Part shown: positions 1,127-38,500 of the stretch, one piece after another
Numbering within the stretch: position 1 is the first letter of the stretch
Layout: each line of letters starts with the position of its first letter
Source of the DNA: an uncultured Eggerthella sp.
Lineage (GTDB): Bacteria; Actinomycetota; Coriobacteriia; Coriobacteriales; Eggerthellaceae
Reading direction: 5' to 3'
DNA length: 64,000 nt
NCBI GenBank assembly: GCA_900538545.1
Contig: UPYK01000004.1
Location: forward strand, 30,098-94,097
Made by a program: the position numbers and the translations under genes
The notes under the pieces: model-generated
Database searches by the model: none
Seen by the model: the letters and a program-made list of their open reading frames with translations, nothing else
Told to the model about the DNA's origin: nothing

Positions 1127-2185
<1,059 letters not shown>

Positions 2186-3360: not shown

Positions 3361-3464
3361 GACGACGAAAAGCTTTTTAGCAGATTCGTTATAAACATCA
3401 AACGACTTTTCGAGTCTATTCCATTCTAAAGCACCGCTTCCGACAAATCGGAACTTGGCAAATT

Positions 3465-6262: not shown

Positions 6263-6273
6263 AAACCTGAAGA

Positions 6274-7344: not shown

Positions 7345-7346
7345 GA

Positions 7347-8411: not shown

Positions 8412-8416
8412 GTCCC

Positions 8417-10515: not shown

Positions 10516-10555
10516 TCTATTCCCTTACCTGCAACGAGCAGCTCTCCGATCAAAG

Positions 10556-12112: not shown

Positions 12113-12131
12113 TGCCTTATTGCTCTTCTAC

Positions 12132-13469: not shown

Positions 13470-13487
13470 GCTTGAAAAACTGCAATA

Positions 13488-15136: not shown

Positions 15137-15221
15137 CTTCTCCTTTGTGCTCGGCTATCTCAAACAGCACGAACCAATTGCAATACATCTGCTTGCGAAC
15201 ATGGCCAATCACAATGAGCCA

Positions 15222-18008: not shown

Positions 18009-18076
18009 ATTTTTCCTAGTTCAATATTGTGCCTCTATTGCATAAATTAAATAGATTCCTCACGGCTGCTCTACTG

Positions 18077-19249: not shown

Positions 19250-19290
19250 ACTGGTCTCCTTGCGCTCGATTACAAATCGGCAAGCCGTGA

Positions 19291-20280
19291 TTAGATATTG
19301 TAGATGTCTGTTTTGTAGCGATCGATATTGTCCCTAAGAAAGTCAATCGTTTCAGCAAGACCCTGCGTAAAAGAATACTTTGGCTGCCAATCAGTCAGCT
19401 TCAAAATCTTTTCATTTGACCCGAGCAAACGGTTGACCTCGCTTTTTTCAGGACGAAGGCGCTCCTCATCACATACGATGCACGCATTTGGATTAATCTG
19501 CCTGATCAACTCTTCCGCAAGCTCGCCAATGGATATTTCCTGTTGAGTAGCAATGTTGATCTCTTCGCCTATGGTCTTCGGTGATTCGTATATATCGATA
19601 AACCCATTTGCAGTGTCTTTGACGTAATTAAAATCTCTTGTTGGAGTCAATGACCCTAGTTCGATCTCCTCTTTCCCTGCAAGCAATTGCGTGATGATCG
19701 TTGGAATAACAGCACGTGCCGACTGTCTTGGACCATAAGTGTTGAACGGTCGAACAATGGTCACAGGCAGATCAAAGGAACGGTAAAACGATTCAGCCAA
19801 TCTATCTGCACCGATCTTGGTCGCAGAATAAGGCGATTGCCCCTGGTAAGGATGATTCTCATCAATAGGGACGTATTGTGCTGTTCCATATACTTCCGAA
19901 GTTGACGTTACTAACACTCTGTCTAAATCAAGCTTTCTTGCTGCTTGAAGGACATTCAAAGTGCCTTTGATATTCGTGTCCACGTATGTATCTGGAGAAT
20001 GGTAACTAAACGGAATCGCAATAAGAGCCGCAAGATGGAAAACCGCATCGCAGCCCTTCATCGCCTCCAAAACGCCATTAGGGTCACGCACGTCACCAGC
20101 AAAGACTTCCACATGCTCCATAATGTCGTTTGGCAGATCCTCAAGCCATCCCCAATTATTGAACGAGTTATACAGAATGAAAGCTCTGACATCATAACCA
20201 CGCTTGACTAGCTCTTCAGTCAAATGGCTTCCGATAAATCCTTCTGCTCCTGTAACAAGAATCTTTTTTGGCATGTTCAT
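19291..20280 (-). CDS. NAD-dependent nucleotide-sugar 4,6-dehydratase/epimerase (extended SDR)
   Basis: ILVTGAEGFIGSHL, TSTSEVYG, YSATK motifs. Sits immediately upstream of the aminotransferase, as in LegB/PseB-like or CDP-sugar dehydratase arrangements. Confidence 0.8.
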   Translation of the reverse strand: MNMPKKILVTGAEGFIGSHLTEELVKRGYDVRAFILYNSFNNWGWLEDLPNDIMEHVEVFAGDVRDPNGVLEAMKGCDAVFHLAALIAIPFSYHSPDTYVDTNIKGTLNVLQAARKLDLDRVLVTSTSEVYGTAQYVPIDENHPYQGQSPYSATKIGADRLAESFYRSFDLPVTIVRPFNTYGPRQSARAVIPTIITQLLAGKEEIELGSLTPTRDFNYVKDTANGFIDIYESPKTIGEEINIATQQEISIGELAEELIRQINPNACIVCDEERLRPEKSEVNRLLGSNEKILKLTDWQPKYSFTQGLAETIDFLRDNIDRYKTDIYNI

Positions 20281-20317
20281 CTCCTTGCTCTACTTCATTG
20301 AGTCGAAAATATTTGCT

Positions 20318-22135: not shown

Positions 22136-22176
22136 ATATAAGTTCTACCGATGCCGGCACTACGACTCCAGCTTTA

Positions 22177-23958
22177 TCACCATTCTGGCATAAATGCTTT
22201 CTGTTGTTCGTCTGGCAAGAAGGGATACATCTCTTCCAGCGCTGGGGTTGAAAACGATCCATCTTCTAGCATTTTGCTCATTAGTTTGGGTACGAGCGGA
22301 TCATTGATGCGCTGATCGATCTCCAACAGCACTCTTCCATTGTATTTGGCAAAATCAGCAAGTGTGCTATTAAGTTCCATATTCGTTCGGCAATGCAAAT
22401 ATCCAAACCCGAACAACTCAGCTACAGATTTAAACGATGGAAAGCTCACTCCTGTTTCCTTAGTACATCCGATAAAGAGCCCATCAAAATAATTTAAACT
22501 TGTCTGACGAATTGCACTGTACCCCTCGTTTGCAAAAATAACGATCTTGATGGGCAGATTATAATGGCGAATAGTCTGTAGCTCTTGAAGGTTCATCATT
22601 ATTGTGCCATCACCTGTGACACATATCACTTCACGACCTGATGCAACACAGGCACCAATAGCCGAAGGCAAATCGAAGCCCATCGCCCCTGCGCCGTAAT
22701 TTGTAATGACGCGCTGATCTTTTTTCTCTTTTCCAACTTGAACCTTCACAGAACAAGCAGTGTTCATGCCCAAGCAGACAATTGCATCATCGGACATAAC
22801 ATCATTGAGCTCCTGCCAAAACCGATAGGCGCCAACACGCTCATCATCCTCAGTATTCTTGATTCCCTCGAACGGATCGAGCGCATCATAGACCGTCTGA
22901 CAATAATCCAACCATTGCGAAGGAGCCTCCAGCCTTTGATCGAGATCGTTCATGTTCTGCAGGAATTGTTTAACATCTGTGCATACTACATGGTCAACAC
23001 TAAGGCCTGGCTTCTTCGACTCTGTTTCATCGACATCTACCATGATGATCTTTGCATTTGGTGCAAATTTTTCTTGCACGAACCCTGTCTGCTTAAAACC
23101 AAGACTGTTCCCAACAGCTATTATCAAATCAGCATTCTGAAGAATATAGTTTCCTGCACGAGGTCCAATATTGCCCGATAAGCCAAAGAATAGAGGATGC
23201 TCGTTATAGTAAATATCTGCCACATGTGCCCCGCCCACAATAGGGACATTATTGGCATTGATGAACGCATCGAGCTCATCTAGTGCATCTCCCGCAATTA
23301 CACCCGATCCCACAAGAACGCAAGGGCGTTCCGCGTTCAGAATCTCTTCAACAACATAATCCAACTCTTTATCTGAAAGCGAACTAGGCTCATTGGAGGG
23401 AACGTATTCGACAAGATCGTCAGTTTCGACAAGGGCGCTTTGCACATTAAGCGGAATATCAAGCCAAACAGGCCCTCTGCGACCCTCCATCGCAATCGCA
23501 TACGCTTTCTCGACTTCTGCCTTAATCGTGAGTGGGTCGATTATGGTTTTGGCATATTTTGTCATATTGCGAACAGAAGATACGATATCGCACTCTTGGA
23601 CCCCACGATACCTTAACGGTAAACCCGAACTGTATACTGAGATGTCATATCTGACCTGCCCTGACAGCACAATCATTGGAATACTATCGGTCCAGGCACC
23701 CAATACCCCAGTGATAGCATTCGTAGCGCCAGGACCACTCGTGACACATACAAGTGCAGGCCTTCCACCTATACGTGCGTAGGCATCAGCCGCCATGGAG
23801 CAAGACTGCTCATGATGCATGAAATACTTATTTATGTCATCGTTAAGAGCCAAAGCATTATCAAGATGCATGGCTCCGCCACCGACGACAGCGAAGCAAT
23901 CCGTGACCCCCAAATCGGACAAGGTACTCATCACGATATCGGCTGCACGTTTTTTCAT
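22177..23958 (-). CDS. thiamine-pyrophosphate-dependent enzyme, acetolactate-synthase-large-subunit-like
   Basis: N-terminal TPP_enzyme_N (GVTDCFAVVGGGAMHLDNAL...CVTSGPGATNAITGV), a central domain and a C-terminal TPP-binding domain (GDGTIMMNLQEL). 593 aa. Confidence 0.8.
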   Translation of the reverse strand: MKKRAADIVMSTLSDLGVTDCFAVVGGGAMHLDNALALNDDINKYFMHHEQSCSMAADAYARIGGRPALVCVTSGPGATNAITGVLGAWTDSIPMIVLSGQVRYDISVYSSGLPLRYRGVQECDIVSSVRNMTKYAKTIIDPLTIKAEVEKAYAIAMEGRRGPVWLDIPLNVQSALVETDDLVEYVPSNEPSSLSDKELDYVVEEILNAERPCVLVGSGVIAGDALDELDAFINANNVPIVGGAHVADIYYNEHPLFFGLSGNIGPRAGNYILQNADLIIAVGNSLGFKQTGFVQEKFAPNAKIIMVDVDETESKKPGLSVDHVVCTDVKQFLQNMNDLDQRLEAPSQWLDYCQTVYDALDPFEGIKNTEDDERVGAYRFWQELNDVMSDDAIVCLGMNTACSVKVQVGKEKKDQRVITNYGAGAMGFDLPSAIGACVASGREVICVTGDGTIMMNLQELQTIRHYNLPIKIVIFANEGYSAIRQTSLNYFDGLFIGCTKETGVSFPSFKSVAELFGFGYLHCRTNMELNSTLADFAKYNGRVLLEIDQRINDPLVPKLMSKMLEDGSFSTPALEEMYPFLPDEQQKAFMPEW

Positions 23959-23988
23959 AAGTGATACCCCTGTTCAGTATTAGTCATC

Positions 23989-24900
23989 TTATTGATATCT
24001 TTGTACCCATTCGGGCATCGTCTCTTTTTCAAACTCAATCTGCCGTTTGATACCCTCATTTAATGAGGCAAATTCTGCAGGTAAACCAGTTTCGTCGTTT
24101 AGTCGATTCACTGACGCAGTATATTCTTTGTTCAGGCCTGGACTAGAGACTTGCACGCTCAAATCCGAGTTCATGGCATCTATAACCGTTTGCGCTATCT
24201 CACTCAAGAGCACTGGGGATCCTGATGCCACGTTATAATCACGGTATTGAGGCTTATTGTGAATAAAATAGCCTATGATCTTGGCAAGATCATAGACATG
24301 AAGATAATCGAATTTGCAGTCTTGCCTGATCGTTATATCTCTCCCCAGCAAGATGCTCCGAATACAATGGGTTATGAATTTTGAATCGTGATCATAAGGA
24401 CCAAAGCAAGCAAACAATCGCAAGTTGGTCACGTTATCGCTGCTCTGAGCCAAGGAATTCATGATGAATTTTGCTTCGCCATACGCATCAACAGGAACCG
24501 AATTCGCTACTTCTTCTTCTTCAATCTGTTGAATATCACGACGCTTGTCATATTCCGCGCCTGAGCCCAGATATAAGATATGCGAGCAAGAATTTCGTTG
24601 TCGAAAGATATTCATGAAGCTCTTCAGCGAGGCTTCGAACATATCTTTATCGCCGTCGGCTTCAGGATTCTTAACAGGATTCGGATTTGCTAAATGCACT
24701 ATCACATCTACCTGATGATCATCAACATAACGAGCTATCGCATCTGCGTCGAGTAAATCAAGCTCAGCTCGAGGTGGAGTCAAAAGATTGCAATTCTCGC
24801 CGATAAGGGGTGCAATATTGCGTCCAACAAATCCTGAACCGCCGGTTAGTAATACGACTGGCCGATCTAGAAACTGCCTCTCCTCGGCTTCTTGAATCAT
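23989..24900 (-). CDS. NAD-dependent epimerase/reductase (SDR family)
   Basis: LLTGGSGFVGRNI Rossmann motif. ~300 aa, typical of nucleotide-sugar 4-ketoreductases and epimerases. ATGA overlap with the upstream gene. Confidence 0.7.
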   Translation of the reverse strand: MIQEAEERQFLDRPVVLLTGGSGFVGRNIAPLIGENCNLLTPPRAELDLLDADAIARYVDDHQVDVIVHLANPNPVKNPEADGDKDMFEASLKSFMNIFRQRNSCSHILYLGSGAEYDKRRDIQQIEEEEVANSVPVDAYGEAKFIMNSLAQSSDNVTNLRLFACFGPYDHDSKFITHCIRSILLGRDITIRQDCKFDYLHVYDLAKIIGYFIHNKPQYRDYNVASGSPVLLSEIAQTVIDAMNSDLSVQVSSPGLNKEYTASVNRLNDETGLPAEFASLNEGIKRQIEFEKETMPEWVQRYQ

Positions 24901-25982
24901 AACTTGCCCTCCAAGCGCTGGGTTGCGACCTGCATCTTATTAAGCTCACCAATGTCTATCCAAGAGTTCTCAGGGATGGGGAATACTCCCACTTTTCCGC
25001 CCCCTTGCATACAGCGTTTTACGATATCGGGGAAATCAATCGCCTCTTCTTCCCCAATGCAATCCAAGACATGGGGCTCCACAATATAAACTCCCGTACT
25101 AACGAGGAATGAGAACTCAGGTTTTTCTTTCAAACCTGTTACATATCCATCGTCATCTGTCTCGATAACCCCATAAGGAATAGAAGTGTTGACCATGGCG
25201 CTCACATAAGTGATATCGTCTCCAAGTTCTTTATGGGTCTGATAAGCGCACGCCAGATCATCGTCGATCAAGATGTCACAGTTCGAAACGATAAACGTTG
25301 AGTCTATATGCCCTTTAAGCAAAGCCAGTCCGCCACCCGTACCTCTAAACTCTTTTTCAGTGAGGAAATGTACGGAGTAATCCGTATCGGCCCCTTCAAA
25401 ATACGACTTGACCATGTCGGCCTTATGATTCAGGATGAACCAAACTTCTCTGCACCCTCGAGAATAGAACTGTTCGATGATGCGCTCAGCAATGCTTGTG
25501 TCTCCAATAGGCACCAAAGCTTTAGGCAGGATCTTCGTATAAGGATAAAGACGCGTGCCTTTACCTCCTGCCATAATCACTAGAGGAACGCCAGCTAGAG
25601 CTTCCTCCAACATCATCAAATCGTCTTCACTATTGAATGCCAGCATGAGAAGCTTTTTTGCTTCATCAACAAGAGGATAAACAATATAGGGATGGGTCTT
25701 TTTTGCTGAATTGATCTCAGCTTCAGATTTAAAACAGACTGGGTTTGGGTTCATCGCTTGAACAACAGGACTTGCCAAATCGCCATCTTCTAAGAAAAAA
25801 TGACGCATGTCGCCGTTGGTAAACAGACCCAAAAGACTATTGTCTGAATCAATAACAGCAACAGCAGGAGCATGATTTTTGCTCATAAGCTCTATCGCGT
25901 CACGAACACTTGCGTCTTTGCCAACCGTATTATCTAACCCATTTTGCATAATCTTAATCCTCGAACTTACAGCACTTGCCAA
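24897..25982 (-). CDS. CBS-domain-containing sugar-phosphate nucleotidyltransferase (PtmE-like)
   Basis: Two N-terminal CBS repeats (VRDAIELMSKNHAPAVAVID...) fused to an NTP-transferase domain (LVIMAGGKGTRLYPYTKILPKALVPI). Confidence 0.75.
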   Translation of the reverse strand: MASAVSSRIKIMQNGLDNTVGKDASVRDAIELMSKNHAPAVAVIDSDNSLLGLFTNGDMRHFFLEDGDLASPVVQAMNPNPVCFKSEAEINSAKKTHPYIVYPLVDEAKKLLMLAFNSEDDLMMLEEALAGVPLVIMAGGKGTRLYPYTKILPKALVPIGDTSIAERIIEQFYSRGCREVWFILNHKADMVKSYFEGADTDYSVHFLTEKEFRGTGGGLALLKGHIDSTFIVSNCDILIDDDLACAYQTHKELGDDITYVSAMVNTSIPYGVIETDDDGYVTGLKEKPEFSFLVSTGVYIVEPHVLDCIGEEEAIDFPDIVKRCMQGGGKVGVFPIPENSWIDIGELNKMQVATQRLEGKL

Positions 25983-25991
25983 GCGCGGTTA

Positions 25992-26768
25992 TTACCACAC
26001 TTTCCAAGGAGCACGGCGGCCGGTCCAAAGTTCCTGAAGCTGCTCGCGCTCGCGCTGCGTATCCATGCACTTCCAGAAACCAGGATGACGATAGCAAGAC
26101 AGCTTGCCTTCGTCGGCAAGAACAGCAAGGACATCCTCTTCAAAGACTGAATCATCGCCGCCAATATAGTCGAACACTGCTGGCTCGCAAACCATGAAAC
26201 CGCCGTTGATCACCGAGCCATCAACATTCTTCTTCTCTCTGAAGGTCGATATCTTTCCATTGTCGTCGATATCAAGAATGCCTTTGCTCTGCCCAATCGA
26301 TACACCACTCAGCGTAACGATCGAATCAGATTTCTCGTGCGTCTCGAGCAGTTTCGCTAAATCGATATCTGCAACGCCATCACCGTAAGTGAGCATGAAC
26401 GGCTCATCGTTCACGTACTGCTTGATGCGTTTGATGCGCCCACCGGTCATGGTGCTATAGCCCGTATCAGCCACGGTTACACGCCATGGTTCAGCCTGGG
26501 AGGAATGTACGGTAACTTCTTTTGATCCGCCGCGATAATCGAAGGTGACATCGGTATGCTGCAAGTAATAATCATCGAAGTACTCTTTGATCTTGTGCTG
26601 CTTATAACCTGCACAGATGATGAAGTCAGTAAAACCCTGTGCTGCGTAGATCTTCATGATGTGCCAAAGAATAGGCCTGCTTCCGATTTCGATCATCGGC
26701 TTAGGGCGCAGGTGGCTCTCTTCTGAGATCCTTGTTCCAAATCCGCCTGCTAAGATTACTACCTTCAT
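25992..26768 (-). CDS. rfbF: glucose-1-phosphate cytidylyltransferase
   Basis: VVILAGGFGTRISEESHLRPKPMIEIGSRPILWHIMKIY is near-identical in pattern to enterobacterial RfbF/DdhA. 258 aa. Confidence 0.85.
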   Translation of the reverse strand: MKVVILAGGFGTRISEESHLRPKPMIEIGSRPILWHIMKIYAAQGFTDFIICAGYKQHKIKEYFDDYYLQHTDVTFDYRGGSKEVTVHSSQAEPWRVTVADTGYSTMTGGRIKRIKQYVNDEPFMLTYGDGVADIDLAKLLETHEKSDSIVTLSGVSIGQSKGILDIDDNGKISTFREKKNVDGSVINGGFMVCEPAVFDYIGGDDSVFEEDVLAVLADEGKLSCYRHPGFWKCMDTQREREQLQELWTGRRAPWKVW

Positions 26769-26789
26769 GTGTTTTCCTTTAGCTCCGTT

Positions 26790-27995
26790 TCATCGAACCA
26801 AAACGTGAATATGTTCGTTGATACCTGCCATATTATCGTTCATCTGCTGTAATGAATCAAATCTCATGAATATGATTCCGAGTGCTTTATTCGCACCATC
26901 AAAGGATTCGATCTGCTCGCCTTCTTGTTCATAAAGAACCGTACGATAGACGCTTGGCGAAAGAACCTCATCGATCTCTATACCATCGAAAATGCCGTCT
27001 TGAAGAGAATGCAAGACATGGGTCGCATAGGCGTCATGCGACAGATCGTAATCGAGGTTTTCGGGCGTTTCTCCCATTGCGCAGAGAACGTTAGCTTCAA
27101 CAAGGTCGATTCCCGATGCGTCGCTCAATTGCACGGGAATCATATTGCCCCCTGCACGTGAACCTAGCTCGATGATATAGGGAGTATTCTCTTTTCCCAG
27201 TATCACTTCCACATTCATCTCACCAAAACGTATACCAAGCGTCCTCACGAGACGCTGAAGAGCATCTTTTATGCTCTTCTTTTGCTCAGCAGAAAGGTTC
27301 GTGGGTGTTTTCTTACCTGTCGGAACTAATTCCACAGCCGCATCACGCACGCAATCCATAAGTCCCCAGAAACGAACCTCTCCATCAATAACGAAGATAT
27401 CGCCCCCGATTACGCAAGGGTACTCCTTCTCGATATACTCTTCAGCAATAAGAACACCGTTATTGTTGATCTTATCGGCAGCTTCTACCGCCAAGACGAA
27501 CGATGCCTGGTCTTCAACAATGGAAACGCCTTTGCTTCCTGATGAATCGGTAGGCTTCACCACGATCGGAAGAGTGAAGCTCTGGAGCGATTCCCATGTC
27601 TTTTCTAGGTCGTCTTTTGCCGAGAACGCCATCGAAGCGGGGCAAGGGAAGCCCTGTTGCTTTAGGTGTTCGCGAAAAAGATGCTTCTGAGACATCGTTT
27701 CGACCGCTGAGAGCGGATTGGTCGGCAAGCCCAATTCTTCGGCAACAGCAGCCGCGATAGGACTTGCGGGGTCAGTCGCATACGCCAGAACGCCTTCGAC
27801 GCGCTCCTTACGAGCAACTTCAAGAACAGCATCTCTATCGGTAGTGCTTACCGGATAATAAACATCTGCGATGAATTGCCCTGGATTATCAGGCAGATAA
27901 TCGCAGAGAACCGTACGATAGCCGAGACGCTTCGCCGTCTCGATCGCAATAAGCTGATGAGGCGATCCTCCGAGCATGAGCAAAGATCTAGTCAT
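26790..27995 (-). CDS. ATP-grasp domain ligase
   Basis: LLMLGGSP pre-ATP-grasp region and a PIVVKPTDSSGSKGV ATP-binding block. Start at the ATG at 27995 with a GGAGG RBS 6 nt upstream, 4 nt after the aminotransferase stop; the longer ORF to 28055 is unlikely. Confidence 0.65.
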   Translation of the reverse strand: MTRSLLMLGGSPHQLIAIETAKRLGYRTVLCDYLPDNPGQFIADVYYPVSTTDRDAVLEVARKERVEGVLAYATDPASPIAAAVAEELGLPTNPLSAVETMSQKHLFREHLKQQGFPCPASMAFSAKDDLEKTWESLQSFTLPIVVKPTDSSGSKGVSIVEDQASFVLAVEAADKINNNGVLIAEEYIEKEYPCVIGGDIFVIDGEVRFWGLMDCVRDAAVELVPTGKKTPTNLSAEQKKSIKDALQRLVRTLGIRFGEMNVEVILGKENTPYIIELGSRAGGNMIPVQLSDASGIDLVEANVLCAMGETPENLDYDLSHDAYATHVLHSLQDGIFDGIEIDEVLSPSVYRTVLYEQEGEQIESFDGANKALGIIFMRFDSLQQMNDNMAGINEHIHVLVR

Positions 27996-29130
27996 GCGCT
28001 GCCTCCAACAGGATCTCGCATATCCGGTCAACGTCTTCGAGGGAAAGATCGGCATACAGAGGCAAGGTTATGACCTTAGAAGCTACTCGCTTGGCGATTG
28101 GCGTAGTATCGCTCGAGTACATCTCTCGATAACAGGCAAAATCAGTAACGAGAGGATAGAAATACTTGCGTGCTCCTATGCCCTGTTCGGCCAACTTATC
28201 GAATATCTCATCGCGCGAGGCTCCAAAGGCGTCGGAATCCACCACAACAGGAAGGTAGGCGTAATTGTGTTCCACATTCGCTGGAGGGATACACAAAGAC
28301 AGTCCCGGCACATCTGAAAGAAGTTCGTAATACCTTTCGGCGACCTGTTTGCGTTTCGCTATCTCACTTGCCACGTGGTGCAGATTGCAAAGCCCCATTG
28401 CAGCAGCAAATTCGTTCATCTTCGCATTGCCACCCACAAAATCACACGACTCAGAGTCTTTCATGCCAAAGTTCGCATGACTTACCAGCTCTACTGCAAG
28501 CTGGGGATCCTTAAAAGAAGCTGCTCCACCTTCAATGGTGTTGAACACCTTCGTAGCATGGAAGCTGAACATGCTCGCGTCGCCAAAACGCGCTACCGAA
28601 ACACCATCTTCCTTCACGCCAAAGGCATGCGCCGCATCATAGATGACTTTCAAATCGTATTTTTTTGCAATGCGCTCGATCTGTTCATGATCGCAAAGAT
28701 TCCCGTATACATGGACGGGCACGATCGCGCAGGTGTTCTCCGTAATAAGCGACTCGATCTTCTCAGGGTCGATCGTATAATCGCTCGAACGAATATCGCA
28801 AAAAACCGGCTTGAGACCTTTGCGAGCCAATGCATTGGTCGTGCTCACAAAGGTAAAAGGAGTGGTGATAACTTCATTACGCCCATCATGCCCCAATTCA
28901 AGGGCTTCAACAATGTTTTCGAGCGCCAAATGCCCATTGGTGAAAAGCGCAAGATTTGACGTGTCCAAAAAACCTTGCAAGGCAGTTTCGAGTTCGCGAT
29001 GTTTTTCCCCTCGGTTAGTAAGCCATCTGCTCTCCCAAAGCGACGCTATTTCAGCGCAATACTCTTCATAAGGAGGCATCGAAGGGCGTGTTACTACTAT
29101 CTGCGAACTAGAAATCGGTATCATCCTCAT
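27988..29130 (-). CDS. DegT-family PLP-dependent aminotransferase, probably dTDP-4-keto-6-deoxyhexose 4-aminotransferase
   Basis: DegT/DnrJ family sequence. Positioned between rfbA and the ATP-grasp gene. Start uncertain: ATG at 29130 or 29124. Confidence 0.8.
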
Positions 29131-30025
29131 AAGAATCGGAAAGAAGGCTTCCGCGCACCCTGCGCTCATATACCGCATAGAGATATTGGCCGTAGGGAGA
29201 TTTCGCATATTTGTCGGCTGCGGCTTTCAGGGTATCGCCGTCGATCCAGCTGTTGTTGTAAGCGATCTCTTCTAGCGATGCGATCTGAATGCCCTGGTTC
29301 TTTTCTACAACACGTACGTATTCCGTTGCCGCATAGAGGCTTTCCATGGTGCCAGCATCGAACCAAGCAGAACCGCGATGCAGCAGCTCTACCGACAACG
29401 AGCCATCTTCCAAATACATGCGATTCAGGTCAGTGATCTCAAGCTCCCCACGAGAAGAAGGAAGGATCTGTTTCGCCCATTCAACTGCGCGGCTATCGTA
29501 AAAATAGAGCCCTGTCACTGCATAATTACTTTTAGGATTCTCCGGCTTTTCCTCAAGAGACACAGCCATGCCATCCTCATCGAACTCAACGATGCCAAAA
29601 CGCTGCGGATCAGGGACATAATAGCCGAATATCGTTGCGCCATAGTCTTTTGTTGCAGCTCTCCTCAAGCGAGAAGTTAAGCCGCCACCGTAGAAAATGT
29701 TATCGCCAAGAGTAAGCGCAACAGAGTCATCTCCGATGAAATCCTCGCCGATGAGCAAAGCCTGTGCTAAGCCCTCAGGATCCAGCTGTTCTTTATATGA
29801 CAGACTCACCCCATATTGGGAGCCATCGCCGAGCAAGCGATGGAATTTTGGAAGATCGCGTGGCGAACTGATCACGAGAATATCTCGAATACCCGCCAAC
29901 ATAAGAATCGACAACGGATAGAAGATCATCGGCTTATCGTATACCGGTAGCAGTTGTTTTGAAGTGACCGAAGTGAGCGGATAGAGACGCGTTCCACTGC
30001 CACCCGCAAGAATAATGCCCTTCAT
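29108..30025 (-). CDS. rfbA: glucose-1-phosphate thymidylyltransferase
   Basis: [18 protein letters not shown]...[16 protein letters not shown]-type sequence. Full-length RmlA. Confidence 0.9.
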
Positions 30026-30092: not shown

Positions 30093-31043
30093 CTATTTTG
30101 TCGCGAGGTACACCACGCCGATTATATTAGCTTTTGCCAAATGAAGCTCGTCGATCATATTCGAAAGGGCACTGCGCGAATCAAGCCATTCGCGCACGCA
30201 GAGAATCGTTATATCTGCTTCTTTTGCGATATAGACCGAACCTATGCCTTCCGAAAGAGAAGGACATTCAACGATCGTGAGGATTCCCGGAAGGGCGGCG
30301 CTCTTGAACCCTTCTGCATGCGGATTTCCCTTGGTGCGGCTTACTGCCACGCCAGAATGTTCGAAAACACTGGTGAGCTCCGCGCAAGTAAGGGTTGCAC
30401 CCGTAAGACCTGCGGGAATAACCGCTATGGTGCTGAGCGGCTCTTCGCTTAGGAAGCGGATGTTGGCAAGAAGCTTTTCGCCTCTATCACGATTAGGAAT
30501 TCTCCCGATGATAGGGAGATCGAAGAGCGTAACAATATCGTTCTCTGATTTGATCGGCTTCTTTATCGCATCGATCACGATAAGCGCACAGATCGAAAGG
30601 AATACTCCAAGAACAAGAGCTATCGCAATGAGCTTCAAAAGGCCAGGAGAAATGCGTTCGGCATAGGTCGCTTCATTTGTAGTGATCGTGAACGCGGCAT
30701 TGACTTTGCGTATTTCGTCAGCCGTAGCATTGATGGCTGAATTTGCAGCGGAGATACATCCGTTGTAGTCGGATCCTTCAGCAAATATAGTGATCGTGCG
30801 ATAAGCCGTATCGGCTTTGGAGGTTACGGTGATGCCATTTTGAGAGAAGAGCTCTGCTTCACTTTGGGCAAAACCGCCAGTTAAGGCAATGTCTGCATCA
30901 GTAATAAGGGTAGCTTTTGCTTCGTATGTTGAAGGTGCGAGCAGGGTTACGACAACCGTGATCACCGCACAAGCAATAGGGATGGCGATCGCTATCTTCA
31001 GATAATGACGAAGGAGTCTCAACAGATCAGAAAAGGTCATCAA
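30093..31043 (-). CDS. Wzz/CpsC-like polysaccharide co-polymerase fused to a degenerate CpsD/BY-kinase-like domain
   Basis: Two TM helices flank a periplasmic-type segment. The C-terminal ~120 aa resemble a P-loop kinase fold but the Walker A position reads [13 protein letters not shown] (no GK[ST]) and there is no C-terminal Tyr cluster. Confidence 0.55.
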
Positions 31044-31124: not shown

Positions 31125-31643
31125 TCAATTATTTTTATGAACCACTTCGAGGCCAATCGTTGCGGTTGTAGTTCTACCGAACATAGTCATTTCGATCAAT
31201 GCTCGCCTTTTATGTCGGTCGATCTTCTTGATGATCGCTTCCTGCCCGAATAACGGCCCTTGGGTAACCGTGATGGTCTCTCCTTCGATATAGCCCTCGC
31301 TCATGCGCACACAATAGGCATCATCAGTGAAGGCAACGATCCAGTCTTTCTCCTCTTCAGAAAGAGGCGTGATCTCATTCTTCTGGCCGTTCTGTCCCAA
31401 AAGGCGTGTAGTTGCTGGGACTTTCTTGAGTTCGCTCAGAAGCGCGAGGATCGAATCGGTGACCATGAACAGATACCCTGGAAAAAGCATGCGACGCACA
31501 CGCTTCCATTCTCCTTGGATCTTGCGCATCGTTTCGTATTCCGGAAGGAAAGCATCCTGCAGAATAGCAGGATCGATCATCTGTTTACACATATCTCGCA
31601 CGGCTACTTCTTGTCCGCTATTGACTTGAGCGACATACCACAT
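31125..31643 (-). CDS. NusG-paralog transcription antiterminator (UpxY/LoaP-like)
   Basis: NGN domain (MWYVAQVNSGQE..., LFPGYLFMV) and a C-terminal KOW motif (GETITVTQGPLFGQEAIIKKID). It is the first gene of the minus-strand glycan operon. Confidence 0.75.
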   Translation of the reverse strand: MWYVAQVNSGQEVAVRDMCKQMIDPAILQDAFLPEYETMRKIQGEWKRVRRMLFPGYLFMVTDSILALLSELKKVPATTRLLGQNGQKNEITPLSEEEKDWIVAFTDDAYCVRMSEGYIEGETITVTQGPLFGQEAIIKKIDRHKRRALIEMTMFGRTTTATIGLEVVHKNN

Positions 31644-32172
31644 GTCTGTTCCTATCCTCGGGCCAAAGCACCGTGTTTGCCGAGAGTCTTGCGTGCATAG
31701 CTTCGCCCTTTTCAGGGGTCTGAATCTTTCAACACGCTCTTCAAACTCTCACGGCTCACGAAACGCGCTTGGCGACGATTTCGATTCCTTAAGATATGTG
31801 CGCGCATCTTGCGAAATACTGCATCCTATATCTGGGCGCAGTTCGAGCAAGATACAACAATATATGGTATCAGTTCATAGGTTTTCGGTAAACAAATTAG
31901 GGCTTCTACCAGCCAAACGGCATGCTTAGCTGCGTTAGTTTCACAGCTTGATGCGCAAGTGCTCCATCTTACGAAAATGCGCATGTAAAAGAAGCAGGAT
32001 TGGCGTAGCTGTAGCATGAAAACGGCAGCTCGGAGGCCGCCGTTTGAAGGATAAATAATGCGAGGTCCACGGTTGATGCACCACTTCGTTGCTTTGGTTG
32101 CGCGATTACAGCGCCATCCTGCGTCGAACGAAACCGATCTTTTCTAGCTTCTTAAAGGTGAAGACTGGATAC
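31644..32172 (-). promoter_or_regulatory. promoter and ~0.5 kb 5' leader of the glycan operon
   Basis: Non-coding stretch between the upstream terminator and the NusG-paralog start. The composition change between the two halves of the window falls here. Confidence 0.3.
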
Positions 32173-32210
32173 AAAAAAAGCGGCCAGGGTTTTGCTTTAC
32201 CCTGACCGCT
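32173..32210 (-). terminator. rho-independent terminator of the SNF transporter gene
   Basis: 11-bp stem (AGCGGCCAGGG / CCCTGACCGCT, one mismatch), followed on the minus strand by a U7 tract. Confidence 0.55.
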
Positions 32211-32251
32211 CTGCGCATGCGTTGCTACGTTGAATCCGCTCTTTCGCTCGG

Positions 32252-33634
32252 CTAGATCGTCATGAAGCCGAGGAATTGGGCGAGGAACGAGATGAACACG
32301 ATCGCGATCAGGATGGGCGCGATGTACTTGATCATGATGCGCCACGCTGCACGCCAACGGAACTTCGATGAGGCCATGATTTCTTCCTCGATGATCTTCG
32401 GCTTGATGCACCAACCAACGAAGATGCAGGTCAGGAATGCTACGATCGGCATCATGATGGTGTTCGAGACAAAGTCGAAGAAGTCGAGCAGCGAAGTGCC
32501 CGCACCCAACGGCTCGATGAACGAAAGACCGTTGTAGCCCAGGTTCACGAACACAGCCGCAACACCGATGATCACGAACGTGAGCACAGTTGCCTTCTTG
32601 CGCGAGCATTTCGCGCCGTCATGCATGATCGAAACGCAGGTCTCCATGAGCGAGATCGCCGAGGTGAGCGCTGCGAAGATAACGAGCAAGAAGAACAGCA
32701 CGCCGATAACGGGTGCGAAATCGCCAAACGATGCGAACATCTGCGGCAACACGATGAACATGAGACCGGGGCCGGAATTTTCGGTAACCGCCTCAGGCGA
32801 ACCCAGCGCAACGAATGCCGCTGGCACGATCATGAGGCCCGCCAAGAACGAAACACCGATATCGAAGCCCGCAACACGGATCGCGCTCGAAGTGAGCGAG
32901 TCGCGCTGCTTCATGTAGGAGCCATAGGTGACCATGATGCCCATCGCGATGGACAGCGAGAAGAACATCTGTCCCAGCGCCGCAACCACGAGCTCTATCG
33001 AGAACGCAGAGAAATCGGGCACCAGATAATAGGCAGCGCCATCGAGCGCGCCAGGCTGGCAGAGCGTGTAGACAACCAGGATGACCGTCATGATGATAAG
33101 CGCTGGCATCATGATCAGGTTAGCCTTCTCAATACCGCCCTTGATGCCGCGCGACACGACGAAGAACACGATAGCCATGAAGATGAAGAGCCAGATATAC
33201 GACTCAAAACTGCTGGTGATGAAGCTAGAGAAGTACGTACCGCCATCGCCGATCATGGTTGCGGGATCGAAGAAATACGCACCGACGTACTTCGCCACCC
33301 AGCCACCGATCACGCAATAGTACGGCGTGATGATGAACGGAACGAGCGAAGCCAGGATGCCAATGAAGGCATACTTCTTGCCGAACAGCTTGAACGCGCC
33401 GATGGTAGACTGGCGCGTCTTACGACCGAGCGCGATCTCGACAAGCAGAAGCGACAGACCAAAGGTGAACACGAGCACCAAGTAGGTGAGCAAGAACATA
33501 CCGCCACCATACTTCGCCGCCAGATACGGGAAGCGCCACAGATTACCCAAGCCGACCGCAGAAGCGGCTGCAGCCAAGATGAATGCCCATTTGCTTGACC
33601 AGGTGTCACGAGCAGCATGTGCAAGTTGAGACAT
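32252..33634 (-). CDS. sodium-dependent transporter, SNF (neurotransmitter:sodium symporter) family
   Basis: WSSKWAFILAAAASAVGLGNLWRFPY signature and 11-12 TM helices. Start at the ATG at 33634 with a GGGGGA RBS; the longer ORF to 33688 is unlikely. Confidence 0.85.
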   Translation of the reverse strand: MSQLAHAARDTWSSKWAFILAAAASAVGLGNLWRFPYLAAKYGGGMFLLTYLVLVFTFGLSLLLVEIALGRKTRQSTIGAFKLFGKKYAFIGILASLVPFIITPYYCVIGGWVAKYVGAYFFDPATMIGDGGTYFSSFITSSFESYIWLFIFMAIVFFVVSRGIKGGIEKANLIMMPALIIMTVILVVYTLCQPGALDGAAYYLVPDFSAFSIELVVAALGQMFFSLSIAMGIMVTYGSYMKQRDSLTSSAIRVAGFDIGVSFLAGLMIVPAAFVALGSPEAVTENSGPGLMFIVLPQMFASFGDFAPVIGVLFFLLVIFAALTSAISLMETCVSIMHDGAKCSRKKATVLTFVIIGVAAVFVNLGYNGLSFIEPLGAGTSLLDFFDFVSNTIMMPIVAFLTCIFVGWCIKPKIIEEEIMASSKFRWRAAWRIMIKYIAPILIAIVFISFLAQFLGFMTI

Positions 33635-33824
33635 AGATCCCCCATTCAGGTTCAATTCGTTCGCTCGCTGATCCAGTTCGATTCGCACTGGATCGGTTCG
33701 CGATATTGCTAGACACGTTGATTTGTATTGCTACGAAGAATAGCAAAAGAACCTTAAAATCTTCACAAGAATGACCGCGCAGGAGCAAGCGGCGAACGTG
33801 AACGGGCTGCGAACATTCCCAGCG

Positions 33825-35468
33825 CTACAGATTGCGCGCGCGGCGACGAGCACGCGCGGCGGCCGCAGAAAGCACCGTGGCAGAAGGCAGCGGCTCGGTA
33901 TTCTGCTCAGGCTGCTTCTTGCTATGCTTGCCTTCAGGTTGAGGGTCCTGTGCTGCGGCTTCGCTAGTGCCGCTCACGGCGGCAGCATGTCGGGCTCTTC
34001 GCTCCGATGAAGCCCGCGCCCCAGCATAGACTTGCGAGAAATCGAACTTGGTGGCTTCACTCGAGTCAGAAGTCTCGGCTGAAGCGCTCGATTCCCTTTG
34101 GCCAGTAGACTCATCAGCCAAAACCCGCTCTTCTGCAACCGGCTTCACAGGTTCAACTTTTGGCAATTCACGCTCGAGCGCTGCATGCGAAGCTGAAGGA
34201 GTTGCTTGGCTTTCTGCAAATGAAGAAGATTGGTCCGCTCCTGAAGAGCTTGCAGGGGCAGCCTCTGCGGTTTGGGTTTCTGCCGCGCTGGATGCCTCCA
34301 GCGAAGAGGCTGGCATCGTTGCCGCAGGCGCACTTATCGAATCGACCACAACAGCTTGAGCATCGCTCGTCATGAAAGCGCTGACAGCAGAGGCCTCTTC
34401 AGAAGAGCAGGCATCGAGATTCGGGCCACGAGGGATCACGATCTCGCGGTCTTGCTCTTTTTCCTGGCGCCACCGCGCCCAGCGCGCAGCAGGTGATGAA
34501 TCCGCTGCACCAGTGCGTTTCTTGGCCTTCTTCGAAGACTTCTTCCCCTTCTCCGTACTGGCCTTAGGAGTTTCTTCGACCACCTTAGGAGCAGGCTCTT
34601 CGAGCGTTGAAACCGGCGGAATATCCTCGATCGCATCGGAAAGGTGCTGATCAGGAGCAAGTTCACCGCGCAGCCCACTCGGGCGAGGATCGTAGTAGAA
34701 GTGCTGCTCAGCGTAGGTCACATGCCAGAGCACAAGTCCTTCAGCAGGCGCGTTCTGTCCTGCTGCCTGTCGGTTGCGCGCCGCGAGCACCTCGCCCACC
34801 CACTCGGGCGTGCGTTTCCCGCGACCAACCAACACGAGCGTACCCACCATCGTGCGCACCATAGAATGCAAGAACGCGTTCCCGATGACCGTGATCACGA
34901 TGAAGTTCGAATTCCAGATCTGCTCTTGCTTGAACGAGATATCGGCAACATAGCGATGCGTGGGCTTATCCTTCGCTGAAACCGCCATGCAGAAGCTCTT
35001 GAAATCGTGCTCGCCCAGCAGATGCGTAGAAGCCTGCTTCATCGCCTCAACATCGAGCGGCTTGCCCAGATGCCAGCAGAACTTCTCCATGAGCAGGGGC
35101 GCAGCCACATCGGTACAGATGTAGTAACGATATTCGCGCATAACGGCCGAGAACCGTGCCGAAAAATCCTCTGGCATAGGGCGCACTGAGCGGAACGAGA
35201 TCTCTTCATGCGTAAGCGCGTTGAGCGATTTCAGAAGTGAATCGGGCTTGCGGCGAAACCACTCATCGGGGAGCAGATCGAAGCTGATCACCTGGCAAAG
35301 CGCATGAACGCCAGCGTCGGTCCTGCCAGCGCACGTGGTATCGATGCGCCGACGAAACAGCAGCTCAAGGGCATCTTCGATATTTCCCTGAACCGTAAGC
35401 TGCCCATTCTGCCGCGCGAAGCCCGAAAAAGGCTCTCCGTTGTACGAAAACCACGCTGCGACCCTCAT
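33825..35468 (-). CDS. truA: tRNA pseudouridine(38-40) synthase with ~280-aa low-complexity C-terminal extension
   Basis: TruA core: MRVAAWFSYNGEPFSGFARQNG...RTDAGVHALCQV with the catalytic Asp. Start at the ATG at 35468; the 725-aa ORF 5' part is discounted. The frame then stays open through an Ala/Ser/Glu/Pro-rich tail to 33825. Confidence 0.75.
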   Translation of the reverse strand: MRVAAWFSYNGEPFSGFARQNGQLTVQGNIEDALELLFRRRIDTTCAGRTDAGVHALCQVISFDLLPDEWFRRKPDSLLKSLNALTHEEISFRSVRPMPEDFSARFSAVMREYRYYICTDVAAPLLMEKFCWHLGKPLDVEAMKQASTHLLGEHDFKSFCMAVSAKDKPTHRYVADISFKQEQIWNSNFIVITVIGNAFLHSMVRTMVGTLVLVGRGKRTPEWVGEVLAARNRQAAGQNAPAEGLVLWHVTYAEQHFYYDPRPSGLRGELAPDQHLSDAIEDIPPVSTLEEPAPKVVEETPKASTEKGKKSSKKAKKRTGAADSSPAARWARWRQEKEQDREIVIPRGPNLDACSSEEASAVSAFMTSDAQAVVVDSISAPAATMPASSLEASSAAETQTAEAAPASSSGADQSSSFAESQATPSASHAALERELPKVEPVKPVAEERVLADESTGQRESSASAETSDSSEATKFDFSQVYAGARASSERRARHAAAVSGTSEAAAQDPQPEGKHSKKQPEQNTEPLPSATVLSAAAARARRRARNL

Positions 35469-35515
35469 GAACGCCGCCCCGTTCTGTGGTTGTGCCTGCT
35501 TGCCATGATGCGCCT

Positions 35516-38500
35516 CTACGATGCTTTCCAGATCTCGCGTCCGAACAGATCGTGCAAGTCTGCCTTGAGCATATGATCGCGCGCATTGATGGTGAGCGGC
35601 AGCTCTGCGCGCATGCGGCTGCCGTCGGTCTGCGCCACGAAGAGCACGATCGGGTCGTTGCCGGGATGGGTCTTCAGGATGTCCAGCAGGCGCGAAGAAG
35701 AAAGCGCGTTCAGCTCGTTGGATTGCACCTGCAGCTCCATGCACACCGGCTTCACGTTCTGCTGCTCTTCGGTAAGTTCGAGCTTTTCGATCTCGTAGCC
35801 GATAAGCTGGTTCGCGCGGTCGCTCACCTCGAACTTGCCGCGCACGGTTACCACTGCATCTTCCTCGAGCACGCTGGAGACCTTCTCGTAGTCGAAGCAG
35901 ATGCACTCGATGCTGCCCGCCAGATCTTCCAGATTGAAGGTGGCCATGAGGGTGTTGCGCTTCGTGCGCTTCACGTTCACGTCGGAGACCATGCCCGCAC
36001 ATTTGATGTTCTTGATGCTCTCTTCGCGCTCGTTCAACTCCGTCATCGAGTATTTGTTCGTGCGCGAAAGATAGTTCTCGTACGGGCTTAAGGGATGATC
36101 GGAGACATACATCTTCAGGATCTCTTTTTCGAAGGTAAGCTTCGTGCGCTTATCCCATTCCACCCCATCGGGCTCAGGGATATCCTCGACGAAGCCCGCA
36201 TCCGGATCGTCCGCGAACATGTCGAACATGCTCACCTGACCAGCGGATTTATCCTTCTGGCGCTTGGCTGCATCGTCGAGCAGCGATGTTTCATCCACGA
36301 AATACATGAGCTGCTTGCGCGTGTAGCCGGTCGAATCGAACGCACCGGACTTGATGAGCGCTTCGAGCGTCTTGCGGTTATAGCATGAGGAATCCACGCG
36401 GTTCACGAAATCGTGAAGCGAAGTGAACGGACCGTTGGCCTCGCGCTCTGCGATGATGGCCTGCACCACCTTCTCGCCCACGCCACGCACGCCAGCAAGA
36501 CCGAAGCGGATGCCGCCATCAACCGGGGTGAATTCCAAGCTCGAAGAGTTGATATCGGGCGGAAGCACGGGGGTGCCGTTGTGGTTCGCGCTAGCAATAT
36601 AGCGAATGAGCTTGTCGTTGCTGCCCATGTAGCTGGTGAGCACCGCTGCCATGAATTCGTTGGGGTAATGCGCCTTCAGGTAAGCCGTGCGCATGACCAA
36701 GATGGCGTATGCTGCAGAATGCGACTTGTTGAACGCGTACTTCGCGAACTTCTCGGCATCTTGCCAGATCTGCTGGGCAACTTCGAGAGAATAGCCGTTC
36801 TCGACCGCACCTGAATCCCAGTCAGCCTGAAGGCCGCGCATCACGTCGATCTTCTTCTTACCCATCGCCTTACGCAGCTTGTCGGATTTGCCTGCCGAAA
36901 AACCGCTCATGACCATGGAGATCTGCATGATCTGCTCCTGGTAGACCATGGTGCCATGGGTCTCTTCCAAGATGCCGCGCAGACGGTCGTCGTAATAATG
37001 AACCGCTTCGGGATTCTTCGCCGCCTTGATGTAGTCTTCGACCATGCCTGACTCAAGCGGACCGGGGCGGTTGAGCGCGATAGATGCGACAACATCCGAG
37101 AATTGCTTTGGGGGGAGGCGCTTGAACAGGCTCACATAGAGCGCGCCTTCCACCTGGAAAAGACCATCCATGTTGCCCGATTGCATGAGCTCGAAGGCTT
37201 TTTCATCGTCGGTGGGGATCTCTTCAGGAACGATCTTCGTGCCGTAGCGCTCTTCGATGTTGCGACAAGCGATCGAAAGCACGTCGAGCGTACGAAGACC
37301 GAGGAAGTCCATCTTGAGAAGGCCCAGGTCGGGTGTGTAGTGGCCGTCGTATTGGGTGATGATGCCGCCGCCCTTGGTATCGCGCTTCATGGGCACATGG
37401 TCGGCCATGGGGTCGCGGCAGATGATGGTCGCGCAGGCATGCACGCCTTCACCGCGCACGTGGCCTTCGATGGATTTCGCCGCATCGATCACCGCATGCA
37501 CATCGGGCTCGTCTTCGTAAGCCTTAGCCAGATCAGGATTGGTTTCGAGCGCTTGGTCGATCGTGATGCCAAGCTCGTTGCCGATCATCTTGCAGATGCG
37601 GTCGCCCGTGCTGTAAGGATAGTCGAGCACGCGCGCAGCATCGCGTACGGCGTTCTTCGCCTGAAGCGTGCCGAAGGTGATCACCTGCGAAACGTGGTCT
37701 TCGCCATACACATCCTTGATGTGGTTGATAACCTCTTCACGCCTACCCTGCTCGAAGTCGACGTCGATATCGGGCATCTCCACACGCTCGGGAGAAAGGA
37801 AACGTTCGAACATGAGACCGTTGGGCAGCGGATCGAGGTCGGTGATACCCATGGCGTATGCCACGATCGCACCTGCCGCCGAGCCACGGCCCGGACCAAC
37901 GCCGATACCTTGGCTGCGCGCCCATTCGATGTATTCCTGCACGATCAAGAAGTACGCGGGGAAGCCTTGATCGATGATGACCTGCATCTCGTAGTCGGCC
38001 TGCTTCTGCACGTGCTCGGGAACGGGATCGCCGTAGCGCTTGATCAGGCCTTCCTGCACGCGCTTGCGGAACCATGATTCCTCGGTCTCCCCTTCGGGCA
38101 GCGGGAACTTCGGCAAAATGGGATCGCGCTCGAGCTCGACGTTGCACTTTTCCGCAACCTCGATGGTGTTATCGCAGGCCTCGGGGAAGTCCTTCAACGC
38201 CGCGCGCATTTCCTCTTCGGTCTTCATGTAGAACTGATCGTTGGGGAACTTGAAGCGCTTTTCCTGGTTGATGGTCTGGTTGGTGCCGATGCACAGCATC
38301 ACGTCCTGCGCCTGCGCATCCTCTTGCACGAGGTAGTGGAAGTCGTTCGTTGCGATGGTCTTGAGCCCCAGGTGGTTCGCAATTTCCGTGAGCTGTTGGT
38401 TGAGCTCGCGCTGCGTCTTGCCCGCATCGGAGGTGATACCCTGGTCTTGGAGCTCGATGTAGAAATCGCCCGGCTCATAGAGCGCGGAGAGCTTCTTCGC

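Follow-up and report, generated by a model that had tools for sequence, protein, structure and literature searches.

The antiterminator protein LoaP of Bacillus velezensis needs a small hairpin in the leader of its dfn target operon, and the 10 nt just 5' of this hairpin are also essential (Jermain et al. 2025, PMC12691694). Antitermination is raised by pausing at a site downstream of the hairpin and ahead of the leader terminator, the terminator is NusA-dependent, and LoaP antagonises NusA; in the supplement to that paper the dfn hairpin is uuucAAUCGcuguUUCGggcaCGUUgaaga, preceded by caccuauuaa(a), and the pause site is ccgucAUGGCuguuuucggGCAUAuu. A contribution of non-template DNA to LoaP recruitment was explicitly left open, and LoaP genes have been reported in Bacillota, Actinomycetota and Spirochaetota (PMC12691694). 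Here we describe a 64,000-nucleotide stretch of DNA from an uncultured Eggerthella sp. (the whole stretch is referred to as the window) in which a loaP gene follows a structured leader at the head of a large glycan operon, and we conclude that gene and leader together probably constitute a LoaP-type processive antitermination module acting in cis. LoaP genes are also said, in work by Goodson dating from 2017, to adjoin polysaccharide operons, and earlier work on B. velezensis LoaP and its dfn and mln leaders is that of Goodson 2017 and Elghondakly 2021 and 2024. In B. velezensis loaP is a separate gene next to dfn; in the window it comes first in the operon, preceded by its own leader.

Two further groups of NusG paralogs provide points of comparison. 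UpxY paralogs are recruited at leader pauses, at opsX elements that combine a pause hairpin whose end lies at -12 to -9 with a non-template-DNA hairpin, 5'-YGCGNAGCR, at -11..+1; the hairpin in the RfaH ops site is GCGGTAGC and the ops of the Bacteroides fragilis PSE locus (opsE) is CTGCGAAGCATA. Recognition by UpxY uses upstream duplex DNA together with non-template DNA, and not RNA (Saba et al. 2024, PMC11685472). The lambda N/nut system offers a looser parallel, in that a protein bound to a nascent RNA hairpin (boxB) travels with RNA polymerase, although N is unrelated to LoaP. RfaH is encoded by a stand-alone gene, is recruited by DNA only, and works mainly by countering Rho and by coupling transcription to the ribosome.

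The LoaP protein and its leader hairpin

The gene in question occupies 31125..31643 on the minus strand and codes for a 172-aa NusG paralog, with an ATG start codon and an AGGA located 8 nt 5' of it. Pfam places an NGN domain (PF02357, E 6e-11) at residues 2-99 and a KOW motif (PF00467, E 2e-5) at residues 121-151, a layout and length in keeping with LoaP proteins, in which NGN precedes KOW within ~165-185 aa. Among the NCBIfam models the protein passes the one for antiterminator LoaP (NF033641; 178.1 bits, cut-off 125), and it scores under the cut-offs of core NusG (TIGR00922; 72.5 bits, cut-off 135.7), UpxY (NF033644; 51.8 bits, cut-off 100) and RfaH (TIGR01955; 33.3 bits, cut-off 144.5). 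Its best relative of solved structure is 8f5g (E 2.6e-18), the aligned part of which itself scores 185 bits on the LoaP model, and E. coli NusG chains match at about 5e-10. We found 50 homologs with identities from 99% to 35%, and the LoaP model is the top match for all 27 of those aligned; a genome scan finds relatives in Eggerthellaceae, Lachnospiraceae, Clostridium and Erysipelotrichaceae. The genomic context is a transporter gene and a glycan operon, and not secE-nusG-rplKA. By these comparisons we assign the protein to LoaP, and not to UpxY, RfaH or core NusG. The original prediction, of an NGN+KOW protein that does not cluster with core NusG, is upheld, and its label of 'UpxY/LoaP-like' can be narrowed, the LoaP half standing and the UpxY half not.

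The leader contains an extended LoaP-type hairpin at 31748..31793 (minus strand), which we refer to as SL2, and which emerges from an alignment of 72 hairpin sequences spanning two phyla, from RNAalifold, from pair counting and from a clade-level fold. Its core (31783..31759) reads CGAAA-U-CG-U-CGC[CAA]GCG-CG-UUUCG, with invariant segments AUCGUCGC at 31779..31772 and GCGCGUU at 31768..31762. Within the 72-sequence alignment AUCGUCGC and CGCG are invariant, and the common structure is an 11-bp helix with two bulged U's in which 92% of the cells are paired. Six pairs show double changes, and the covariation score is 0.394, compared with 0.126 for shuffled alignments (none of 500 shuffles scored as high) and no more than 0.126 once the helix partners are slid against each other. 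The four upper pairs never change, the upper part AUCG-U-CGC/GCG-CG being constant in both phyla; loops differ in length as well as sequence, and the base of the stem covaries freely; such a pattern is what sequence-specific reading of the helix would produce. A conserved CACAUAUCUU (31800..31791) precedes SL2, and part of its conservation is explained by the pairing of its UCUU with AAGA or GAGA at the base of the hairpin, which in the Eggerthella clade, according to the clade-level fold with its basal stem, extends SL2 to about 46 nt.

This hairpin is closely tied to loaP. A hidden Markov model (HMM) built from the close leaders detects it directly 5' of loaP and in the same orientation; E values are 1e-13 to 1e-3 for distant Eggerthellaceae, and the Firmicute matches are weak. 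The pattern ATCGTCGC, a gap of 3-6 nt, and GCGTT is present within 400 nt 5' of loaP in 62 of 80 species genomes, and the hairpin is found in 77 of 90 LoaP loci, once per locus, 5' of the gene and in its orientation. The window holds a single copy (E 1e-11). The expectation of the original prediction that aligning homologous loci would reveal leader conservation and hairpins is thereby borne out, both by this covarying hairpin and by the ops-like element described below.

Comparison with the B. velezensis system shows many points of agreement. The two proteins belong to the same curated family and each is associated with a very long biosynthetic operon, and the leaders have the same order of parts: a conserved 10 nt, a hairpin, a downstream pause region and a terminator-type helix. 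SL2 resembles the dfn hairpin in its AAUCG/CGUU lower stem, its bulged U, its basal stem and its position in the leader; the family as a whole does so in the UUCG loop of many Firmicute members and in overall length relative to the published dfn hairpin oligonucleotide. A conserved A/U-rich block also lies just 5' of the hairpin, in the form CACAUAUCUUAA in the window. The systems differ in the upper stem, which is UCGC/GCG in the window and CUGU/GGCA in dfn, and in their cargo and host, with polysaccharide genes in an actinobacterium of the Eggerthellaceae as opposed to the polyketide genes of dfn.

The GCGAAGC element and the third leader domain

Beyond SL2 the leader carries an 8-mer, GGCGAAGC (31707..31700), within the segment GGGCGAAGCUAUG (31696..31708, minus strand), which is notable for its invariance, its frequency and its likeness to opsE; in the window it is followed directly by UAUG. 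The heptamer GCGAAGC lies approximately 55 nt past the LoaP-type hairpin (mode 54-57, range 49-109). It occurs within 400 nt 5' of loaP in 57 of the 80 species genomes, and the looser GCGNAGC in 65; with a background of 0.08 per kb per strand, 0.03 occurrences would be expected per locus (binomial P 2e-66). Hairpin and heptamer are found together 5' of loaP in about 70% of the 80 species, in two phyla. An alignment of 45 actinobacterial and Firmicute leaders shows GGCG.AGC to be invariant amid varying surroundings, and GCGAAGCATA is present in 24 of 55 LoaP leaders.

Adjoining the 8-mer is a GC-rich hairpin of variable sequence, CCCCUGAAAAGGG at 31706..31718 (minus strand) in the window, for which hairpins are found at the same position in relatives and which we consider a candidate pause hairpin. 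In 53 of 62 distinct leaders a hairpin ends within -5..+1 of the first G of GCGNAGC, even though the stem sequences are unrelated. At the level of sequence the two parts together (GGCGAAGCU, 31718..31699) resemble the layout of opsX. As a class, RNA polymerase pause sites follow an established G-10/Y-1/G+1 consensus, and the 12-mer GGCGAAGCUAUG fits this if the pause is assumed to be at the U before the final G; the 8-mer region also has the potential to form a d(GCGAAGC) mini-hairpin.

The likeness to the UpxY systems of B. fragilis extends further. In both, the operon is of the capsule type with the NusG paralog encoded first, and a leader hairpin is followed directly by GCGNAGC, with GCGAAGC itself forming the core of opsE; the hairpins of LoaP leaders end about 9-13 nt before the presumed pause, and those of class 1 opsX at -12 to -9. 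The window differs in having a Wzz/CpsC-like second gene and no gene for the inhibitor UpxZ, and in providing no evidence of invertible promoters, and LoaP leaders have the additional invariant RNA hairpin some 55 nt upstream, which UpxY systems lack. RfaH, like the paralog of the window, is a specialised NusG paralog devoted to surface-polysaccharide operons that are long, low in GC and horizontally acquired. The RfaH ops GGCGGUAGCGUG and the window 12-mer have in common a GGCG start, the AGC half of the stem and a UG end, and both have the potential for a GCG(N)NAGC mini-hairpin. The canonical ops GGCGGTAGnnTG, allowing up to one mismatch, was found at chance level and not in the window leader. 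In the dfn leader the place corresponding to the invariant GGCGAAGC is taken by the mapped pause (AUGGC...GCAUA), the flanks of which are the same as those of the Firmicute consensus AUGGCGAAGCAUA; we regard this as a lead and not as a test.

These similarities suggest by analogy that the 8-mer and its hairpin form an ops-like pause or loading site, possibly read as non-template DNA, a proposal that we put forward tentatively and to which we would give somewhat less than an even chance. We make no stronger case for its extension to the family, in which LoaP leaders of Actinobacteria and Firmicutes would be bipartite, consisting of an RNA hairpin plus an ops-like element (a variable pause hairpin and then GGCGAAGC) with the core GCG(N)NAGC of the RfaH and UpxY sites. 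A full-text search found no description of the 8-mer for LoaP within the accessible literature, the key older LoaP papers being outside it, and GCGAAGC with its adjoining variable hairpin may be an ops-like element that is, as far as we found, undescribed.

Several other roles for the 8-mer were considered and set aside. It occurs 11 times in the window, compared with 4.4 +/- 1.9 expected from shuffles, but use of the internal copies as re-loading sites is not indicated: the sense strand of the operon has no meaningful excess (4 versus 2; 5 versus 7 for the heptamer), and the downstream regions of the 80 loci have none over the upstream background. The surplus probably reflects codon or composition effects. 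GCGAAGC could pair with the apical GCUUYGC in the LoaP hairpin of many Firmicutes and not of Actinobacteria, with no covariation seen, and likewise inspection by eye of a 10-leader alignment showed no covariation between CAUAUCUU and GAAGCUAUG.

The small hairpin of the window (CCCUGAAAAGGG, 31718..31706) is nearly identical to the lambda boxB consensus, GCCCUGAAAAAGGGC. This looks coincidental because relatives carry other loops at this hairpin, including UGGCA and UGGUA. The boxB control oligonucleotide listed in the supplement to PMC12691694 is a slightly different variant. No boxA was seen, no search aimed at one having been made.

Both the small hairpin and the heptamer are enclosed by a third domain, closed by a helix whose 5' arm lies at 31732..31750 and 3' arm at 31682..31698 (both minus strand). 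In the window GAGAGU (31750..31745) pairs with ACUCUC (31687..31682), and AGCGUGU (31738..31732) with AUGCACGC (31698..31691). Comparison with locus L001, from a strain of the same species with a LoaP 99% identical, shows a C:G to U:A double change. Minimum free energy (MFE) folds show a closing helix in 51 of 66 distinct leaders, in which the block after the LoaP hairpin pairs with sequence after the heptamer, and 39 of the 66 have a U-run of at least four, mostly 5-8 nt past the heptamer. The counterpart of the window's 5' arm in relatives is the 5' arm of their leader terminator. After the equivalent 3' arm, Gordonibacter and Eggerthella sinensis have UUUUCUUUU, and their leader terminator consists of AAGAGGAUGAAUAG ... 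CUAUUCAUCCUCUU and UUCUUUU; clear leader terminators are also present in many Firmicute leaders. Because of these frequencies of closing helix and U-run, we read the hairpin-pause-terminator order of the dfn leader as the general plan of LoaP leaders, a plan from which the canonical terminator appears to have been lost in the clade of the window.

Predicted promoter, flanking DNA and the glycan operon

Alignment of 10 upstream regions (LoaP 73-99% identical) shows that conservation is confined to the proximal ~300 nt. A predicted promoter at 31864..31892 (minus strand) consists of a -35-like TTTACC (31892..31887), a 14-nt gap and an extended -10, TGATACCAT (31872..31864), with 17 nt separating TTTACC from the TACCAT hexamer; the extended -10 box TGnTAnnAT is invariant in all ten leaders. 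A stringent consensus promoter scan did not report this promoter, so its assignment is one of conservation. A 5'-proximal stem-loop (SL1, 31801..31858, minus strand), a long hairpin in the MFE fold, begins about 6 nt past the -10 box in all ten close relatives, with differing sequences and z of about -1.3 to -5. From the positions of the -10 box and of the stem-loop we therefore predict that transcription starts near 31858 and that loaP and its operon have a 5' untranslated region (UTR) of about 215 nt (31644..31858, minus strand). The leader of roughly 0.5 kb envisaged in the original prediction is thus right as a description of the non-coding DNA, of which there are 529 nt between the upstream terminator and the loaP ATG, and too long as a transcribed leader.

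Upstream of the promoter a conserved block at 31909..31945 (minus strand; TGTGAAA...GCCGTTTGGCTGG, about -51 to -87) was identified from conserved alignment columns. It has its core GCCGTTTGGCTGG at about -51 to -63 from the predicted start, is kept in all ten close leaders, with its 3' half alone retained in L001, and is a possible site for a transcription activator or other regulator. The remaining DNA, 31946..32172 (minus strand), is a non-conserved spacer of ~230 nt outside the functional leader that is present in the window and in L083 and L090 and is missing in L001 and more distant relatives. It holds a second terminator-like hairpin, AAACGGCGGCCUCCGAGCUGCCGUUUUC (32045..32018), a version of which with compensatory changes is present in L088; the spacer may be what is left of a small transcript or an inserted element. 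Repeated palindromes, TGTTGTAT...ATACAACA, flank the presumed promoter region of Gordonibacter and E. sinensis (L003, L005, L006 and L010), ~60-170 nt 5' of the LoaP-type hairpin. They may serve as operators or as the inverted repeats of an invertible promoter, and TTGTTGTAT occurs once in the window, at 31860..31852. Rfam searches of 29000-34000 with E up to 10 gave no match other than a chance snoRNA, and of the whole window at the gathering threshold a single tRNA; the leader has no Rfam family.

The upstream neighbour is a gene for an SNF-family transporter (Pfam; 32252..33688, minus strand), with an intrinsic terminator at 32173..32212 (minus strand; a 14-bp stem with 8 GC pairs and a run of seven T's) that is strong and insulates the loaP operon from outside read-through. 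Beyond it is a TruA open reading frame (ORF; 33825..36002, minus strand) that is 725 aa as listed; its best Pfam stretch covers residues ~324-430 only, and it has a long Ala/Ser/Glu/Pro-rich C-terminal tail. The homologous genes in relatives are 458-553 aa, and the first ~200 aa as listed may come from an ORF extended too far at its N-terminal end.

Downstream, an unbroken run of ~30 minus-strand ORFs extends from 31643 to position 20 with gaps of no more than ~135 nt, confirming loaP as the first gene of an operon of about 31 kb. Its GC content is 42-50%, compared with 53-58% in the flanks, and the fall starts at the leader. The second gene (30093..31043, minus strand) is a Wzz/CpsC-like chain-length determinant by a weak Pfam Wzz match; it is under the cut-off of all NCBIfam chain-length models and its C-terminal half matches no family. 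The rest (20..30025, minus strand) includes by Pfam RmlA, two DegT aminotransferases, ATP-grasp enzymes, NTP-transferases, epimerases/dehydratases, a TPP enzyme, NeuB, UDP-GlcNAc 2-epimerase and a PglD-like acetyltransferase, together with GT2 glycosyltransferases, a Bac_transf initiating transferase and a Wzx-type flippase. The operon, of at least 31 kb, is a low-GC glycan operon of the Wzx/Wzy (capsule/exopolysaccharide) type.

In all of eight metagenomic relatives with LoaP 73-93% identical to that of the window, TruA and SNF (or MFS) genes are followed by a gap of 339-650 nt, loaP, the Wzz-like gene and then glycan genes that vary among them. In L081-L090 loaP and a Wzz/CpsC-like gene of ~315 aa form a constant 5' module and the glycan genes behind it are wholly different, resembling the serotype-type cassette variation of capsule loci.

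We also scanned metagenomes for the leader motif regardless of loaP. This gave 120 rows, of which most are chance matches in GC-rich soil contigs and 36 pass the HMM for the hairpin module. A loaP ORF follows in 26-27 of these 36, and the other ten motifs lead directly into glycan genes; L150, L129, L170, L121 and L166 have no loaP within 1.3 kb. In one of the ten (L103), as in the genome locus L080, loaP is immediately 5' of the leader. The leader hence marks LoaP target operons, as it also fronts glycan genes that have no loaP downstream, and these exceptions, L103 and L080 included, suggest trans-regulated targets and alternative gene orders.

One intragenic terminator candidate stands out in the operon, a 12-bp perfect hairpin followed by UAUUUUAUUC at 24297..24271 (minus strand), inside the epimerase gene 23989..24900. 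A copy of GGCGAAGC at 24480..24473 lies ~180 nt 5' of it.

Proposed antitermination at the locus and its alternatives

By analogy with dfn we infer processive antitermination of the operon, in the following order. On the evidence of sequence and comparison, RNA polymerase starts at the extended -10 promoter, with a predicted start near 31858 and with outside read-through blocked by the strong terminator of the upstream gene, and the ~215-nt leader RNA folds into the 5' stem-loop and then the long hairpin, whose upper part is constant across two phyla and whose base covaries. The later steps, from binding to read-through, are proposed by analogy. LoaP from the same transcript would bind this hairpin sequence-specifically, as in B. 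velezensis. About 55 nt further on the polymerase would meet the variable hairpin and GGCGAAGC(UAUG), acting as a hairpin-stabilised pause at which the LoaP-hairpin complex may be handed to the elongation complex. An exposed non-template GCGAAGC mini-hairpin possibly aids this step, as at the ops of RfaH and the opsX of UpxY. The modified complex would then resist termination by the published antagonism of NusA, at the leader terminator in relatives and, in the window, at weak or cryptic sites within the 31-kb operon, for which weak intragenic terminators and Rho- or NusA-dependent sites are candidates. With loaP placed downstream of its own leader, the order leader-loaP-operon implies positive autoregulation.

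Several observations weigh against this scheme. The clade of the window has no U-tract after the closing helix, unlike dfn, and a leader terminator is not evident; intrinsic terminators within the operon are at chance level (21 versus 16.4 expected, and 15 versus 14.6). The hairpin has a CAA triloop in place of the UNCG-type tetraloop of dfn, and nhmmer searches with the leader-module HMMs gave no match to the published dfn leader, so that the link to dfn is a motif-level resemblance of short motifs and position. In an alignment through 8f5g the sites corresponding to the RNA-binding E40/R41 of B. velezensis LoaP are R40/K41, although this mapping is indirect. Folded by MFE as a single sequence, the whole UTR (z -1.65) lacks the LoaP hairpin, which comparative folding alone shows; we judge that fold uninformative because the downstream partner it gives to the hairpin core is not conserved. 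As regards the 8-mer, the heptamer is base-paired in the terminator stem in some leaders, and a role as non-template DNA is proposed purely by analogy.

This last point leads to an alternative account of GGCGAAGC, in which it acts in RNA only, either as the 3' arm of a terminator or domain helix or as a GAA-triloop mini-hairpin that tunes terminator folding. The U-tracts past the heptamer in 39 of the 66 leaders and the placement of the heptamer in or near the 3' arm of the closing helix agree with such a role, as do the perfect pairing of the heptamer with an upstream GCUUCGC in one subclass (L138, L166 and L121), the GGC-GAA-GCY mini-hairpin predicted by RNAalifold, and the complementarity to GCGAAGC of the apical GCUUYGC in Firmicute LoaP hairpins. 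A stem arm should covary, however, and the heptamer stays constant in two phyla whereas its partners change or are missing; the loop of the hairpin and the N in GCGNAGC show no covariation by eye, and the clade of the window has retained the 8-mer despite having no U-tract and a non-complementary CAA loop. Moreover, experiments on another NusG paralog define this heptamer, with an adjacent upstream hairpin, as a non-template-DNA pause and recruitment site (PMC11685472). We regard an RNA-only role as plausible, if short of probable.

The remaining alternatives concern the module as a whole. Recruitment by a DNA ops site alone, as for UpxY and RfaH, with the hairpin serving RNA stability or pausing, would account for GCGAAGC with its adjoining hairpin and for the first-gene placement shared with upxY, but the protein scores below the cut-offs of the UpxY and RfaH models, a Wzz-like and not a UpxZ-like gene comes second, the canonical ops is not above chance, and the strongest signal in the leader is the invariant hairpin core with its covarying base, which matches the RNA element bound by LoaP; we think this very unlikely. 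There is similarly little chance that the leader controls loaP expression only, as an independent cis-acting riboswitch or protein-binding attenuator, with LoaP acting on other loci. A long structured UTR with several conserved modules and no Rfam match could be so interpreted, and yet the leader behaves as an operon mark, fronting glycan genes that lack loaP and following loaP in L080 and L103; it is present in one copy in the 64 kb, and has no conserved multi-helix junction resembling a ligand pocket. That loaP is instead the housekeeping nusG or a recent duplicate, preceded by an ordinary spacer, is scarcely conceivable: the NGN+KOW architecture is common to both and the protein does obtain 72.5 bits on the NusG model, but that is under the NusG cut-off in a protein over the LoaP cut-off, the LoaP model is best for every aligned homolog, the genes around it are not those of secE-nusG-rplKA, and family-specific leader elements are tied to loaP in 77 of the 90 loci. 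We therefore favor a LoaP-type module acting in cis.

The locus itself is of a LoaP kind already known; the bipartite cross-phylum leader with its 8-mer may be new. For this organism, the analysis defines the predicted promoter, UTR and cis elements of a large low-GC surface-glycan locus of a gut Eggerthella that would be under elongation-level control by a dedicated, self-amplifying LoaP module. The leader architecture, common to about 70% of the 80 species-level LoaP loci in two phyla, bears on the open question of how LoaP is handed over to RNA polymerase, and the pairing of hairpin and GGCGAAGC offers a practical marker of LoaP-dependent glycan operons in gut metagenomes, including operons without an adjacent loaP. 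The position of GGCGAAGC ~55 nt past the hairpin and its identity to the core of a UpxY ops hint at a recruitment logic common to RfaH, UpxY and LoaP. If it is a real pause or loading site, the three major families of specialised NusG paralogs would share an ancestral DNA recruitment signal, and LoaP would have added RNA recognition to DNA recognition and not, as currently proposed, replaced it.

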